Below, in pieces: positions 7,349-18,562 of a stretch of DNA of 35,179 nt (within the stretch, counting starts at the first letter, position 1; the number at the start of each line of letters is the position of its first letter). The position numbers and the translations under genes are program-made. The DNA is taken from contig JBEKXP010000001.1 in assembly GCA_049511815.1 (NCBI GenBank), positions 1 to 35,179 on the forward strand, in the 5' to 3' direction. This stretch comes from Dehalococcoidia bacterium. Its GTDB lineage: Bacteria > Chloroflexota > Dehalococcoidia > DSTF01 > JALHUB01. The notes under the pieces were generated by a model, which had not been told where the DNA came from, did not search any database, and was given only the letters and a program-made list of their open reading frames with translations.

Positions 7349-7963
7349 ATGCCGAACAGGAGACGAGTGGCACCAGGGAACGAAGCCCGGTCAGGTGGCG
7401 ACATCCGCCTGGGCGGCCTGTTCAAGGGCCTCGGCGATTTCGTTGACCTGCTCGCCGACCTGGCGGCGAAGGGCGAAACGCTTCGCAACGGCAGCGGCGA
7501 GATCGAAGGTCTACCCAGGGGAATGAAGGGCGTGTACGGCTTCAGCGTTCGCACGGGTCTGGGCGGCGTCCCTCAAGTGCACAAGTTCGGCAACGTGCAC
7601 GCCACTGATAGAGGACCGGTCGTCGACGACGTGCGCGAGCCGATGGTGGACGTGTTCGACGAGGAGGACGTGATTATCGTGCTGGCGGAAATGCCGGGCG
7701 TCGGGCGGGCGGACGTCGAAATCGAGATCAACGGCGACGTGCTCTCCATCGCGACCGCCGCAGGCGCTCCCCGAAAGTACGCGGCAGAGGTGCTCCTGCC
7801 GGCGCCGGTCCAATCGGACGGGATGAAGATGGCGCTCAAGAACGGTGTCCTGGAGCTGCGGCTCACCAAGGCGCCGAAGGCGAAGGGAAAACGAGATGCC
7901 ACGCCTCGGAAACGAGGACGCGGCCGAGCGAGAGCGAAGCGGCAGGGCACAAGCTCGCCATAA
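7349..7963 (+). CDS. Hsp20/alpha-crystallin protein (GvpH-like, archaeal-type Hsp20)
   Basis: VYGFSVRTG...FGNV...REPMVDVFDE..IIVLAEMPGV...KNGVLELRL; basic C-terminal tail. Confidence 0.85.
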   Translation: MPNRRRVAPGNEARSGGDIRLGGLFKGLGDFVDLLADLAAKGETLRNGSGEIEGLPRGMKGVYGFSVRTGLGGVPQVHKFGNVHATDRGPVVDDVREPMVDVFDEEDVIIVLAEMPGVGRADVEIEINGDVLSIATAAGAPRKYAAEVLLPAPVQSDGMKMALKNGVLELRLTKAPKAKGKRDATPRKRGRGRARAKRQGTSSP

Positions 7964-7984
7964 CCGGCTAGAAGGTTGCATCGG

Positions 7985-10162
7985 ATGCAGTCGTCGGGGG
8001 AAAAACGGAAGGAACCGAAGCCGGCCCGCAACGGTGGCGGCCGCAGAGAGATCGTCCTGCGCGTCGCCGAAGCGCACATGAAGGACGTCGGCCGCGGCAT
8101 AGCGCGCCTGGACCCGGCGGACCTGGAGCGGATCGGCGCCGAGACCGGCGACCTCCTCGCGATCACCGGCAAGCGGCAAAGCGTCGTCAAGGCGATGCCC
8201 GCCTATCTCTCCGACAGAGGCAAGGGAATCATCCAGATCGATGGCATCGCCCGCGACAACGTGCGCGCGGGCCTCGACGAGAAGCTCACGGTGACGAAGG
8301 CGGCCTGCGAGCCGGCCAGGACAATCGTCGTTGCGCCGCTAAGCCCCGCGCGTCTGCCACCGGGAAGCCAGCACGTCACTTACGTCGCCCGTCTCCTCGA
8401 AGGGCGCGGGCTCGTCGCGGGGGATCGGGTGCGAGTCAATCTCTTCGGCGCCCGCCCGCAGGAGTTCACGGTCGTCGAGACGGCGCCGAAAGGCATCGTC
8501 CTGGTCCAGGCCGGCACGACCGTCCGGATCAGGGGAGAGGAGCACGCGGAGAAGGAGCAGGCCGCGCTCTCCTACGAGGACGTCGGTGGTCTGGGCAAGG
8601 AGATCCACCGCATCCGCGAGATGATCGAGCTTCCGCTCAAGTACCCGGAGGTCTTCCAGCGCCTCGGCATCGACGCGCCGAAAGGGGTGCTGCTGCACGG
8701 ACCGCCCGGCTGCGGCAAGACGCTGATCGCCCGCGCAGTCGCTCACGAGACCTCGGCCCATTTCATCCACGTGGCCGGCCCGGAGGTGATCCACAAGTTC
8801 TACGGCGAGAGCGAAGCGCACCTTCGCACGGTCTTCCAGGACGCCGCCGAACACGCGCCCAGCATCATCTTCCTCGATGAGATCGATGCCATCGCGCCAA
8901 AGCGGGAAGAGGTGCACGGCGAGGTCGAAAAGCGGGTCGTGGCCCAACTCCTCGCGCTCATGGACGGCCTGAAGTCGCGCGGCGAGGTTATCGTCATCGG
9001 CGCTACCAACATACCGAACGCCCTCGACCCCGCGCTGCGCCGTCCCGGCCGCTTCGACCGCGAGATCGCCATCAGCATCCCGGACAAGAACGGCCGGCTG
9101 GAGATCCTGGAGATCCACACGCGCGGCATGCCCCTGGCAGACGACGTGGACCTCGAGCGGCTGGCGCAAATTACTCACGGCTTCGTCGGCGCCGACCTGG
9201 AGGCGCTCTGCCGCGAGGCCGCGATGATAACGCTGCGTCGCATAATGCCGACGATTGATTTCGCGACCGCCAGCATCCCTTACGAGAAGCTGCAGGAGCT
9301 TGAAGTCACGCAGGACTGCTTCCTGGAGGCGCTCCGGGAGATCGAGCCCTCCGCCATTCGAGAGGTCTTCACGGAGATCCCCGACGTCAAGTGGAGCGAC
9401 GTCGGCGGCCTCGACGAAGTGAAGCAGGCGCTGATGGAGACGATCGAGTGGCCGCTCAAATACGGCAAGCTCTTCGAGCACGCCCACGTCGTTCCGGCGA
9501 AGGGAATCCTGCTGCACGGTCCGCCCGGCACCGGCAAGACGCTAATCGCCAAGGCGGTCGCCAGCGAAAGCCAGGTCAACTTCATCGCCGTCAAGGGGCC
9601 GGCGCTGCTCTCGAAGTACGTGGGCGAGAGCGAGAAGGGCGTGCGAGAGGTCTTTCGAAAGGCGAAGCAGGCGGCGCCCTGCATCGTCTTCTTCGACGAG
9701 ATAGACGCGCTTGCGCCCATCCGCAGCGGCTACGACACGACGCACGTGAGCGAGCGCGTGGTCAGCCAGTTGCTCACCGAGATGGACGGCATCGAGGAGA
9801 TGAAGGGCGTTGTCGTCCTTGCCGCTACCAACCGGCCGGACATGGTCGATCCGGCGCTGCTTCGCCCCGGCAGGTTCGACACGTCGATAGAGCTGCCGGC
9901 GCCGGACAAGGCGAGCCGCCTGGCCATCCTTCAGATTCACACGCGAGGCAAGCCACTGGCCGGCGACGTCGACCTGGCGGGCCTGGCGAATCAGACCGAC
10001 GGCCTCGTGGGCGCCGACATCGAGGCGATTTGCCGCCGCGCCGGGATGCTTGCTATTCGGGAGTACCTGGCGAGCAGCCGCGGGGACGACGAGCACGCCG
10101 GCTTCAAGATAGCGGCCCGCCACTTCCAGCAGGCCATGACGCAGGCGCCGGCCATCGCCTGA
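7985..10162 (+). CDS. Cdc48/VCP family double-ring AAA+ ATPase
   Basis: N-domain ([10 protein letters not shown]), two AAA modules with GPPGCGKT and GPPGTGKT, Walker B IIFLDEID and [17 protein letters not shown]; ATG 7985 preferred over TTG 7976. Confidence 0.93.
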
Positions 10163-10196
10163 GGACGACGCGGTTAGTCAAGACAGGGGGAGCCAG

Positions 10197-16325: not shown

Positions 16326-18160
16326 GCAGGGCAGTCGGCATCGACCTCGGCACGACGAACAGCTGCGTCGCCGTCATGGAGGGCGGCGTGCCGGTCATCA
16401 TCCCGGGCGCCGGCGGGGAGCACATCACGCCGTCCGTCGTCAGCGCTGACGCCGCGGGGCATCGATTCGTTGGCTCGGCGGCCAAGCAGTCGGCTATCGT
16501 CAATGCCGAGAACACGGTCCTCAGCATCAAGCGGCTCATGGGATGCCGCTTCCACGAGCCGGAGAACACTGCGACGGTGGAGCATGACAGGAGATACGCG
16601 GCCTGCAGGATCGACGAATCGGCAGGCCACGACGTGCGTGTCTGGATGGCCGGCAAGCCGTACAGCCCGCCGGAGATATCGGCCATGGTCCTGCAGCAGT
16701 TGAAGGCCGGAGCGGAGGCCTATCTCGGCGAGGAGGTGAAGCAGGCCGTCATTACGGTGCCCGCGCATTTCAACGACAGCCAGCGCCAGGCTACTCGCGA
16801 CGCGGGCGCAATCGCGGGCCTGGACGTCCTGCGGATCATCAATGAGCCTACGGCGGCGGCCCTCGCCTACGGGCTCGACAGGAAGAAAAGCCAGACAATC
16901 GCCGTCTACGACCTGGGCGGCGGCACCTTCGATATTTCGATCCTCGAGCTCTGCGAGGGCACGTTCGAGGTCAGGGCCGTGAACGGCGACACACACCTGG
17001 GCGGCGACGACATCGACCGACGGGTAGTCGACTGGCTGTGCCGGCTGTTCGCTCAGCGGCAGGGCGTCGACCTGCGCGGCGACCGAACGGCGCTGCAGCG
17101 ACTAAAGGACGCGGCCGAGAGAGCAAAACAGGAGCTCAGCACGCGTCTCAGCGCGGAGATTAGCCTTCCCTACATCACAGGGACGGCCTCCGGTGCCGGA
17201 CACCTGCAGGTCACCCTGACGCGGTCCATTCTCGACGAGCTGGCGGCGGACCTCGTTGAGCGGACCATCGATTGCTGCCGCCAGGCCCTTCGCGACGCGG
17301 AGTTGACCGTCGGCGAGCTGGACGAGATCGTCCTCGTGGGCGGGCAGACGCGCATGCCGCTCGTGCCGGAGCGCGTGAGGCGGTTCTTCGGCAGGGAACC
17401 GCACACCGGTCTGAATCCGGACGAAGTCGTCGCCCTGGGCGCGGCCGTGCAGGCAGGCGTCCTTACCGGAAAGGTCGGCGGCGTGCTGCTGCTGGACGTG
17501 ACGCCGCTCACACTCGGCGTGGAGACGAGAGGCGGCATCGCAACGCCGCTCATAAAGCGCAACACCACGATTCCCACCTCCGCCAGCCGCGTCTTTACGA
17601 CCGCAGCCGACGACCAGTCGAATGTCGAAATCAACGTCGTGCAGGGAGAGCGCGCGATGGCGGCGGAGAACAGGTCGCTGGGGCGGTTCTGCCTGGAGGA
17701 CATACCGCCGGCGCCGCGGGGCGAGCCGCAGATCGAGGTCACGTTCGCCATCGACGCCGACGGCATCGTGCAGGTGCGCGCCTGCGACAAGGCGACCGAG
17801 CGCGAGAAGGGGATCGTCGTCCGTTCCGCCGACGGGCTCTCGGAAGCGGAGATCGAGCGTATGAGGACCGAGGCGAAACAGTTCGCGGCCATCGACAGCC
17901 AGCGGCAGGACGAGATCGCGACGCGCAACCGAGCGGACTCCTGCATTCTCCGGGCGGAGACCGCGCTGGCGTCGCTGGACGCTGAAGACGCCCGTCAGAT
18001 GGGCACAGCTGTCATCGAGAAGATTGCAGCTCTAAGGAGAGCTTTGCGGGAAGGCAAGGTCAGGCGAATCGAAATGGCGCAGCGAGCGCTGGAGTCGGCG
18101 CTGACGATGCTCGACGGCTGGACAGCGGAAGAGCTCGACGCCGCGAAGCGGAGCGCCTGA
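16322..18160 (+). CDS. dnaK: Hsp70/DnaK paralog within the gvp operon
   Basis: [35 protein letters not shown] linker, [19 protein letters not shown]; start ATG 16322. Confidence 0.92.
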
Positions 18161-18163
18161 CGG

Positions 18164-18562
18164 TCAGCGCCCGGCCGGCCTCCGAAAGCGGGCCTCGAAT
18201 GCGTGGGGGCGAAAGGCGATGTCAGGAGTGCTATCGCCCGGCACGAGGAAGTTGTGGTAGTAGCTGGACTGGGGGCCGACGTATTCGATCTCGAGGATGT
18301 CGCCGCTGAGGCGCCAGACTATGTCGGCTTCAGATATGCGCATCGGGAAATCGAGACGAATCAGATGCTCGCCACGCGCTCTCGTCGTCCTGGCGACCGG
18401 CGCGGCGGCCTTTCGAGGAGGGACGACGACGTCGCCTCCGCGTCGTGCCGCTTGCGTCGTCGGCTGCGGCGAACGCGCCATCGTGGGGCTACGGCTCCGG
18501 CCGCCCGCAGGAATGCGGTGCCTCGAGCTGATGGTGACTGGCGGGATGCTACGAAGTGCCAT
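18164..18562 (-). CDS. Hypothetical protein with degenerate Hsp20-like C-terminal domain
   Basis: LIRLDFPMRISEADIVWRLSGDILEIE...YYHNFLVP aligns by eye with the alpha-crystallin core of 7349..7963. Confidence 0.55.
   Translation of the reverse strand: MALRSIPPVTISSRHRIPAGGRSRSPTMARSPQPTTQAARRGGDVVVPPRKAAAPVARTTRARGEHLIRLDFPMRISEADIVWRLSGDILEIEYVGPQSSYYHNFLVPGDSTPDIAFRPHAFEARFRRPAGR

Follow-up and report, generated by a model that had tools for sequence, protein, structure and literature searches.

Why would a cluster of gas-vesicle genes carry a heat-shock system of its own? The question is raised by a 35,179-nt stretch of DNA from an uncultured Chloroflexota bacterium (Dehalococcoidia; assembly GCA_049511815.1, contig JBEKXP010000001.1, positions 1 to 35,179), referred to below, at its full length, as the window. 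Here, genes for gas-vesicle proteins (gvp) are mixed with genes for Hsp70 (DnaK), a J-domain, a DnaJ-type zinc finger, alpha-crystallin proteins, and Cdc48, forming an island of ~15 kb in DNA of ~65% G+C. The answer we favor is that the island is probably a gas-vesicle cluster with a dedicated proteostasis set, in which a GvpL/F protein fused to a J-domain (GvpL::J) would load Hsp70 for the handling of shell proteins. The chaperone genes belong integrally to the gvp module: they are inherited and lost together with it, and they are translationally packed among the gvp genes.

What is the evidence that these genes belong together? First, there is their arrangement. Eighteen genes run unbroken on the + strand from 4764 to 18160. 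The series begins with gvpA, a gene for a 235-amino-acid (aa) repeat protein, a gvpN-type ATPase gene of the AAA_5 family, a 115-aa open reading frame (ORF), gvpH (Hsp20), cdc48, and the GvpL::J gene. It continues with a second gvpF/L, the zinc-finger gene, gvpG, a gene for a TPR-like protein, and a gvpJ-type gene with a cysteine-pair tail, and it ends with a second gvpJ/M-type gene, gvpK, a gene that joins an N-terminal region to an Hsp20 domain (X::Hsp20), a third gvpF/L, an 88-aa ORF, and dnaK. Two more genes follow, at 18164–18562 (−) and 18674–19315 (+). Neighboring genes overlap by GTGA at 11246 and 14159 and by ATGA at 15217 and 16322; the remaining junctions have gaps of 2 to 37 nt, except around gvpA, the repeat-protein gene, and gvpN. 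The 4-nt overlaps and short gaps, together with synteny of the whole set in five other genomes, put the grouping beyond chance. A preliminary description of this DNA had placed the cluster at 7349–18562. Family scans find all of the genes that it listed (gvp genes, Hsp20, Cdc48, J-domain, zinc finger, TPR-like protein, second Hsp20 fusion, and DnaK) where it put them, but its limits were too narrow: the cluster starts at gvpA (4764) and runs to 19315.

Second, the island behaves as one unit. In two genomes of the same genus that lack gvp genes (G004 and G002), the flanks of the window abut at 88%–90% nucleotide identity. The left flank, an HpaB-family gene, ends at 4378/4380, and the right flank, the phoU-pst side, starts at 19282/19288, with a separation of 75 bp in G004 and 349 bp in G002. 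The whole island (4379–19281, no strand assigned) is therefore a single indel, one present-or-absent block that includes the chaperone genes, the convergent mini alpha-crystallin gene (18164–18562), and the last gene, orf213. G002 keeps a 201-bp relic of the orf213 3′ end (window 19075–19275), which suggests loss rather than gain; the block was probably lost from G004 and G002 rather than gained by the window genome. In the closed genome G008, the cluster occupies a different chromosomal place. At the island ends, repeats of ≥9 nt are absent in both direct and inverted orientation, and the sole 11-nt inverted match, at 4741 and 19326, lies off the boundaries.

Could the linkage be an artifact of assembly or binning? 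The source assembly (G000) is a fragmented metagenome-assembled genome of 2.26 Mb in 248 contigs, 90.6% complete, with an estimated contamination of 4%. However, four other assemblies show the same gene order, as does G008, a genome of 2.3 Mb in a single contig. The identity of the flanks to same-genus genomes is 88%–90%, and DNA sequencing runs from peat and wetland share up to 0.74 of the stretch's words. An artifact has a negligible probability, and a chimeric contig was rejected on the gene order in other assemblies and the flank matches.

Is the linked DnaK a genuine Hsp70, and is it distinct from the housekeeping copy? Its gene (16322–18160, +) encodes 612 aa that match PF00012 at 743.6 bits over profile positions 1–591 of 599, a full-length Hsp70 in which the nucleotide-binding domain, the linker, and the substrate-binding domain are all present. 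The protein scores 834 bits against NF001413 (cut-off 648) and 820.4 bits against TIGR02350, just below the cut-off of 822.55. Alignment with the canonical copy shows that it keeps the ATPase and interdomain linker motifs. The alternative identities HscA and HscC were rejected (NF003520, 585.7 bits with a cut-off of 620; TIGR01991, 573.3 bits with a cut-off of 708.55). The canonical dnaK lies on contig C56 and scores 884 bits, versus 743 for the window copy, and directly upstream of it (C56:1018–1473) is the only match to GrpE (PF01025) in the genome. This grpE-dnaK pair makes the window DnaK a paralog and not the host's only DnaK.

In the DnaK tree, the nine gvp-linked copies lie on one side of a branch and 14–15 canonical copies from the same or neighboring genomes on the other. 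The split has an SH-aLRT support of 98 under LG+G4 (24 rows) and an ultrafast bootstrap (UFBoot) support of 89 with an SH-aLRT of 91 under LG+C20 (23 rows); the LG+C20 tree leaves out the canonical DnaK of G008, whose ORF passes through a frameshift and forms a long branch. The six linked copies from the window's own order are supported 100/100. Judging from these trees, a single origin of all nine linked DnaKs is likely. The linked copies have also diverged in a characteristic way. They lack a conserved acidic C-terminal tail that is present in canonical Chloroflexota DnaKs, and 32 positions that are invariant in 14 canonical DnaKs differ in all of the linked copies from the order. These clade-specific substitutions are enriched in the substrate-binding domain, where they fall at 18 of 97 canonical-invariant positions versus 14 of 185 in the nucleotide-binding domain. 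One example is L403 to R/Q; the change of S219-T220 to A-V is shared by all nine linked copies. We take position 403 to be that of the arch methionine of E. coli DnaK. In a collection of 5.8 billion proteins, the 17 best DnaK rows, the window's own included, score 782–1326 bits, above a canonical plateau of ≤775, and all are named only “molecular chaperone DnaK.” Two smaller observations concern individual sequences. The linked DnaKs of five relatives (L005–L008 and L010; columns ~85–109) have an insertion of ~25 aa, located in the nucleotide-binding domain and repeating the adjacent S-I-K-R-F-M-G segment; it is absent from the window copy and from canonical DnaKs. The canonical dnaK of G008 (G008:C1:1035237–1037010) is split over two frames.

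The start of dnaK overlaps, in an ATGA at 16322, the stop of the 88-aa ORF (16059–16325, +), which encodes a basic coiled-coil protein with no family match and no match to GrpE. The ATGA overlap of dnaK had been noted in the preliminary description, and it is real, but the partner is this ORF and not a gvp gene. The ORF has 32 invariant columns in six orthologs and always lies directly before dnaK or overlaps it. A predicted complex of its product with the linked DnaK scored 0.00, a value that, without controls, speaks neither for nor against an interaction.

Does this DnaK follow the gas-vesicle genes from genome to genome? Among 41 genomes sampled from the order, GvpL/F is found in six (G000, G008, G009, G016, G011, and G023), which span four genera and two families. 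In all five gvp-bearing relatives of the window genome, the linked dnaK directly follows the third gvpF/L, and its product is 63%–72% identical to that of the window. The accessory set (repeat protein, 115-aa ORF, zinc-finger protein, TPR-like protein, X::Hsp20, 88-aa ORF, and mini alpha-crystallin protein) is syntenic in these relatives. The linkage recurs in three more distant Chloroflexota, so it is not peculiar to one genome. A canonical DnaK is encoded elsewhere in four of the five relatives, and none was found in G023 (85% complete). The 35 gvp-lacking genomes of the order show no second DnaK locus: G014, G020, and G040 each have two non-overlapping pieces of a single gene, and G012 (78% complete) has no DnaK at all. 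The co-occurrence (a second DnaK in none of the 35), the DnaK tree, and the single indel all point to a dedicated chaperone part of the gvp module. Cdc48 follows the same distribution, with proteins of 76%–86% identity found only in the six gvp-bearing genomes of the 41, always in or beside the cluster; Cdc48 proteins of 57%–59% identity occur in four gvp-lacking genomes of one other genus. In four relatives, the convergent mini alpha-crystallin gene and cdc48 are placed not inside the cluster but upstream of gvpA.

The same data bear on the idea that the chaperones are general stress genes that travel with a mobile island and serve the whole proteome. In its favor, the distribution of the island is patchy: seven of nine genomes of the genus lack it, and its location in G000 is not that in G008. 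The linked DnaK, for its part, has lost none of the general motifs and scores above the NCBIfam cut-off for DnaK. Against the idea, the chaperone genes are not appended to the gvp genes but stand among them, joined by 4-nt overlaps; one reading frame unites a Gvp protein with the J-domain, whose HPD motif is invariant; and the order gvpH-cdc48-gvpL recurs across the phylum. Moreover, the DnaK clade occurs only with gvp among the 41 genomes, and it has clade-specific changes in its substrate-binding domain. We consider a general stress role quite improbable.

How might a dedicated set act on gas vesicles? The protein that would connect the two systems is GvpL::J (10197–11249, +), which matches the GvpL/F family (PF06386) at 196 bits and has a C-terminal J-domain (PF00226, 35.4 bits with a cut-off of 27.8). 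Its HPD motif (H288 P289 D290) is invariant in six orthologs. In the mechanism that we propose, a protein of the family that is the hub for accessory proteins and for hydrophobic GvpA/J/M-type proteins in Halobacterium would present a J-domain with an intact HPD motif. The J-domain would stimulate ATP hydrolysis by Hsp70 at the very place where aggregation-prone shell subunits are held, and the subunits would be bound, held in solution, and let go as the growing vesicle incorporates them. In the window genome, the Hsp70 would be the private DnaK, with its altered substrate-binding domain and without the conserved tail; in most other lineages with GvpL::J, it would be the housekeeping DnaK. Nucleotide exchange would have to be provided in trans by the single GrpE or else be dispensable.

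The remaining chaperones would support this cycle. The zinc-finger protein (12090–12518, +; 142 aa) stands alone, matches PF00684 at 38.5 bits (cut-off 32.7), and has six CXXCXGXG motifs, as read from its translation. With J-domain and zinc finger split between two proteins, the cluster encodes no complete type I DnaJ, which would unite J-domain, G/F region, zinc finger, and C-terminal client-binding domains. The zinc-finger protein is encoded in all nine DnaK-bearing gvp loci and in eight of 44 other loci sampled from the phylum. Its gene is duplicated in tandem in G008 (L005 9975–10807) and G023 (L009 4266–4589) and triplicated in G089 (L043 8521–10121). Three alpha-crystallin proteins are encoded as well. 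GvpH (7349–7963, +), a small heat-shock protein (sHsp), matches PF00011 at 25.3 bits (cut-off 20.8) and PF05455 at 25.0 (cut-off 22), and scores 132 bits against NF041800 (“archaeal Hsp20”), under the cut-off of 140. X::Hsp20 (14159–15220, +) has ~350 aa, with an N-terminal region of ~265 aa followed by an alpha-crystallin domain (PF00011, 29.1 bits with a cut-off of 20.8). A profile of six orthologs matches the alpha-crystallin domain of Sulfolobus Hsp20.1 (4rzk) with an E value of 4.8e-14. The N-terminal region is possibly PH-like, and four of the six members have a weak match to CheF-arch (best E value 0.0033). The true start is the GTG at 14159, within the GTGA overlap with gvpK; the longer ORF at 13826–15220 is partly a shadow frame.

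The third alpha-crystallin protein is encoded convergently (18164–18562, −) and has 132 aa, with a disordered N terminus and a minimal alpha-crystallin-like domain that is shorter than the canonical one. The ORF has no Pfam match. However, the preliminary description was probably right to call this a third Hsp20-like gene. By hhalign, a profile of eight orthologs matches the alpha-crystallin domain of the cluster's own GvpH with 91.9% probability (E value 7e-7). The AF2 model has a predicted local distance difference test score (pLDDT) of ~90 over residues 55–127, and the best Foldseek matches of the model are sHsp alpha-crystallin domains (4rzk, E value 2e-4, TMt 0.70). A protein-atlas lead, with a score of 0.89, points the same way. 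In six of six genomes, the gene is convergent to cdc48 or dnaK. Together with the zinc-finger protein, the three alpha-crystallin proteins would act as ATP-independent holdases. The preliminary description had spoken of a near-complete Hsp70 machinery; this is a fair account of what is present, with the qualification that a nucleotide-exchange factor and the DnaJ client-binding C-terminal domains are absent from the cluster.

Cdc48 (7976–10162, +; TTG start uncertain) is a double-ring AAA+ ATPase of the Cdc48/VAT type. It has the CDC48_N and CDC48_2 domains and two AAA modules with their lids (TIGR01243, 953.4 bits with a cut-off of 802.65; PF02359, 82.8 bits; PF02933, 39.2 bits; PF00004 twice, 313 bits). 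Docking to the 20S proteasome uses a C-terminal HbYX (hydrophobic-Tyr-X) tail. The window protein ends in ...MTQAPAIA and has no such tail; from its sequence, it may still be a Cdc48, one that does not dock to the 20S proteasome. Its gene has a preferred position: in the 22 phylum loci with a full Cdc48, GvpL/F is encoded downstream in 16 and GvpH upstream in 10, so the gvpH-cdc48-gvpL order of the window recurs across the phylum. Within this triad, Cdc48 would act on shell protein that is misassembled or has collapsed, by unfolding or extracting it. We infer, much as the preliminary description did, a division of labor in which sHsps would hold clients, GvpL/F-J would recruit DnaK, and Cdc48 and GvpN would remodel. 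The dedicated assembly or recycling line for GvpA that it proposed is partly supported.

Might the set serve disposal and not assembly? DnaK, the sHsps, Cdc48, and perhaps orf213 could dismantle collapsed or surplus vesicles and misfolded GvpA. The gain would be reduced buoyancy or the recovery of a protein that is both insoluble and very abundant. Such recycling is compatible with a role in assembly. Cdc48-type unfoldases extract and unfold proteins, sHsps with Hsp70 are the classical entry route to disaggregation, and the pore loops of the window Cdc48 are aromatic in both rings (KFYG and KYVG). In addition, orf213 belongs to the island and adjoins cdc48 in several lineages: it lies ≤15 nt downstream in G324 and G084 and close by in G292 and G011. 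This last island gene (18674–19315, +) encodes 213 aa with a probable ChaN/EreA/TraB-like fold. Its match to PF01963 is weak (19.6 bits, under the cut-off of 26.8) and is found in four of six orthologs, with a best E value of 7.3e-5. An AF2 model (pLDDT 79.7) aligns by VIA-align with ChaN (2g5g, Z 10.3, root-mean-square deviation 4.1 over 152 aligned residues), HopBA1 (Z 9.4), and EreC (Z 6.9); a sequence-profile search of the PDB gave nothing credible, and Foldseek gave nothing at E ≤ 0.001. The product of orf213 may be a hydrolase partner of the Cdc48 unfoldase. Against disposal as the purpose of the set, the J-domain is on GvpL/F, a member of an assembly family and not a degradation factor, Cdc48 has no proteasome-docking tail, and no protease family scores above its cut-off (for orf213, PF01963 falls short, and a fold match shows no function). 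Disposal as the main role is unlikely, yet it is the strongest competitor of the assembly role.

A further idea is that the Hsp70/J pair regulates gvp expression and does not handle shell protein. By analogy, this would fit the control of sigma-32 or HspR by DnaK elsewhere. No dedicated GvpD/E- or GvrA-like regulator was recognized in family scans of the island, and the middle part of X::Hsp20 is possibly winged-helix-like, by eye only. However, no DNA-binding family was detected, the J-domain is borne by a structural-assembly family, and three sHsps, a zinc-finger holdase, and an unfoldase exceed what regulation would need. A regulatory role therefore has only a very small probability.

How widespread is the arrangement? 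Of 401 Chloroflexota genomes sampled, 47 encode GvpL/F, counting the unpublished G078. A 2020 paper (PMC7332563) states that gas-vesicle genes in Chloroflexota occur only in Viridilinea-related species, a range that the tally widens. Of the 46 other GvpL/F-positive genomes, 44 contributed a total of 53 stretches, which were searched with the window's proteins, with G078 and G275 (a weak 40-bit match) left out; many loci stop at contig ends, so that the counts are lower bounds. Cdc48 is encoded in at least 22 of the 44 loci, GvpL::J, counted where the GvpL/F match extends through the J-domain, in at least 15, and the zinc-finger protein in at least eight. A contig search with very narrow patterns gave only the five known full-length GvpL::J loci and 10 irrelevant matches to the J-domain alone. 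As a side observation, the loci fall into two types, a simple one (gvpA, J, K, and F) and one with gvpN, gvpH, and Cdc48. The GvpL::J fusion extends well beyond the phylum: 102 of the best 120 homologs have both PF06386 and PF00226, and the homologs are labeled, in part, Anaerolineae, Acidobacteriota, NC10, and Patescibacteria. As far as searched, and judging from sequence, the private DnaK is confined in the sampled genomes to a few uncultured Chloroflexota lineages. All three DnaK-bearing phylum loci (G084, G117, and G292) have both GvpL::J and the zinc-finger protein.

Several points weigh against a dedicated chaperone role in assembly. First, DnaK is found within the fetched stretch in just those three of the 44 other Chloroflexota gvp loci, so a private DnaK must be dispensable for most gas-vesicle clusters. 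Second, the Hsp70 system of the cluster has gaps: no GrpE was found in the cluster, and no DnaJ C-terminal client-binding domain was found at E ≤ 0.01 in the cluster proteins. Third, the single-origin split of the linked DnaKs appears in 88% of bootstrap trees under LG+C20, a moderate value, and both linked groups are long branches. Fourth, some linked dnaK genes are interrupted, by one TGA in G009 and by two in-frame stops in G292, for which sequencing error and decay are not distinguishable. Fifth, the compared genomes are kin, such that the co-occurrence counts overstate independence. Sixth, the hub role of GvpL is taken from haloarchaeal work and carried over to the window protein by family only. 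Finally, gas vesicles in this lineage are known from genes alone and have never been observed, and the sequencing runs that match the stretch are DNA runs, with no RNA run listed.

How does the island compare with known gas-vesicle clusters? The vac region of Halobacterium salinarum (gvpACNO and gvpDEFGHIJKLM) shares with it GvpA, GvpN (AAA+), GvpF, GvpL, GvpG, GvpJ/M, GvpK, and the Hsp20-like GvpH. Unlike the haloarchaeal region, the window has no GvpD/E regulators and no recognizable GvpC, GvpO, or GvpI. To our knowledge, haloarchaeal vac regions encode no Hsp70, J-domain, DnaJ-type zinc finger, or Cdc48. The accessory proteins of Halobacterium form a complex around GvpL, according to the available part of PMC7688916. 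A 2010 paper (PMC2963123) describes, in its available part, ArsA-homolog ATPases and hsp20 in gvp operons of Bacteroidota/Chlorobi, cyanobacteria, and Acidobacteria, and proposes that they energize or chaperone biogenesis. Those clusters resemble the window in having an extra ATPase and an Hsp20 embedded in the gvp operon. They differ in the ATPase family, which is ArsA/Get3-like there and Cdc48 plus Hsp70 here; the same part of the paper reports no J-domain or DnaK. A parallel for the J-domain fusion is on plasmid pOA238_160 (NC_020910.1) of Octadecabacter arcticus 238. Its cluster, like that of the window, has gvpA, gvpN, Hsp20, and several GvpL/F genes, one of which encodes a 360-aa GvpL/F with a J-domain and an HPD motif that is 36% identical to the window GvpL::J over 342 residues. 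Unlike the window, the annotated 29-kb stretch has no DnaK, Cdc48, zinc-finger protein, or X::Hsp20. O. arcticus is cultured and gas-vacuolate, with gas vesicles called “a main characteristic” in the available part of PMC3646047, which does not mention the J-domain.

Other parallels lie outside gas-vesicle biology. HscA/HscB of the isc operon is the nearest functional analog that we can suggest for the Hsp70/J pair, in that a specialized Hsp70 paralog and a J-protein are encoded with the one pathway that they serve. The HscA/HscB pair, which acts in Fe-S cluster transfer, is also not known to have a GrpE of its own. In contrast to it, the Hsp70 of the window scores as DnaK, and the J-domain is fused to a Gvp protein and does not have the HscB fold. 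The stand-alone CXXCXGXG module is shared with plant BSD2 and Bacillus anti-TRAP, and the window protein matches the anti-TRAP models as well as PF00684. BSD2 chaperones the assembly of Rubisco, an oligomer prone to aggregation. The window protein has six motifs and DnaJ four, and the likeness to BSD2 and anti-TRAP amounts to a shared domain only. Finally, archaeal Cdc48/VAT and actinobacterial Cpa have the same N-domain with D1 and D2 rings as the window Cdc48, which differs from them in having no docking tail and in being encoded within a gvp cluster.

What is new, and what would it mean? Hsp20-like GvpH and GvpN are already known from classical clusters; the new element is a gvp cluster enlarged by a dedicated set of Hsp70/J, zinc-finger, sHsp, and Cdc48 proteins. 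The preliminary description had held the system to be undescribed. We found no description of an Hsp70, J-domain, or Cdc48 encoded in a gvp cluster in a full-text literature search, which left subscription journals largely, and supplements entirely, outside; the GvpL::J fusion alone, by contrast, is widespread in public databases. The island bears on how the extremely hydrophobic GvpA stays in solution and enters a growing, gas-facing shell, a process in which the roles given to GvpF/L, GvpH, and GvpN are largely guesses. A bolder proposal is that gas-vesicle assembly is generally driven by Hsp70 and that GvpL/F proteins are client-specific co-chaperones. The Chloroflexota islands would then be an extreme case, with a private DnaK, a retuned substrate pocket, and a gvpH-cdc48-gvpL recycling module, perhaps with a ChaN/TraB-like hydrolase. 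This general form is possible, albeit doubtful. If it were true, the J-domain fusions, widespread across phyla, would bring to light a role that the model clusters conceal, and the J-fusion, DnaK, and Cdc48 could be the missing parts where gvp clusters fail or prove toxic in heterologous hosts. The GvpL::J fusion is the most general and most testable part, as it predicts that GvpL/F hands clients to Hsp70. There may also be uses in biotechnology. Heterologous expression of gas vesicles causes proteotoxic stress, and assembly factors chaperone GvpA, as stated in the available part of PMC12848028. The Chloroflexota islands would be a natural “chaperone-supplemented” cassette, relevant to the engineering of acoustic reporter genes, which such stress limits.

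The remaining genes of the island are mostly of familiar gas-vesicle families and complete the set of a GvpA-family shell protein with GvpF/L, GvpG, GvpK, and a GvpN-type AAA+ protein. The major shell protein gene, gvpA (4764–4979, +; 71 aa; PF00741, 60.6 bits), has a GTG start behind the ribosome-binding site GGAAGGAGG, and its product is 95%–99% identical in five relatives. Directly after it, in the usual position of gvpC, is the gene for the 235-aa repeat protein (5145–5852, +), which has no credible Pfam or NCBIfam match and is 27%–65% conserved in relatives. Its internal repeats have offsets of 58, 33, and 25 aa (best score 0.21, versus −0.19 ± 0.09 for shuffles); we point to position and repeat character and do not claim GvpC identity. 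The protein is arginine-rich and has three repeats that contain W-A-R-E/R-H. The gvpN-type AAA+ ATPase (MoxR/AAA_5; 5935–6927, +; PF07728, 64.7 bits) is 58%–76% identical in relatives and present in 19 of the 44 phylum gvp loci; it is called GvpN on the basis of its family, its position, and its conservation among gvp loci. The 115-aa protein that follows (6965–7312, +; start uncertain) is 46%–72% identical in five relatives. Neither it nor the 88-aa protein matched anything in family scans, and no analogy with GvpO or GvpI is claimed.

The second GvpF/L (11246–12070, +; PF06386, 210 bits) is joined to the preceding gene by a GTGA overlap and the third (15217–16053, +; PF06386, 199 bits) by an ATGA overlap. 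GvpG (12479–12823, +) matches PF05120 at 56.8 bits, GvpK (13848–14162, +) matches PF05121 at 67.8 bits, and the second GvpJ/M-type protein of the GvpA family (13546–13845, +) matches PF00741 at 56.4 bits. The TPR-like protein (12807–13196, +; 129 aa) has a marginal TPR_6 match of 27.9 bits (cut-off 26.3) and is 52%–71% identical in relatives. The first GvpJ/GvpA-family protein (13180–13539, +; PF00741, 55.7 bits) has a C-terminal CxxC...CxxC tail and is 72%–88% identical in relatives. The tail is conserved and resembles a zinc ribbon, and the protein is 70%–88% identical in the DnaK-bearing gvp loci of distant Chloroflexota (L028, L042, and L047). In the relatives, an extra gvpA-like gene (L005 14607–14813, with equivalents in L006–L008 and L010) separates the third gvpF/L from the 88-aa ORF and is ~46%–51% identical to gvpA; in the window, the third gvpF/L and the 88-aa ORF are 5 nt apart, without the extra gene.

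A promoter and terminator scan of 4300–19400 gave nothing above shuffles, and neither an Rfam nor a tRNA scan of the window produced a match. The DNA runs that share the stretch's words are peat, wetland, and soil metagenomes, with largest shares of 0.74, 0.48, 0.45, 0.40, and 0.34. The genes that flank the island, at 28423–31759 and 19286–23086, are ordinary housekeeping genes: a methylene-tetrahydrofolate reductase-type gene, formate-tetrahydrofolate ligase, phoU-pstB-pstA-pstC, a low-molecular-weight phosphatase, and a PAS/HAMP histidine kinase.

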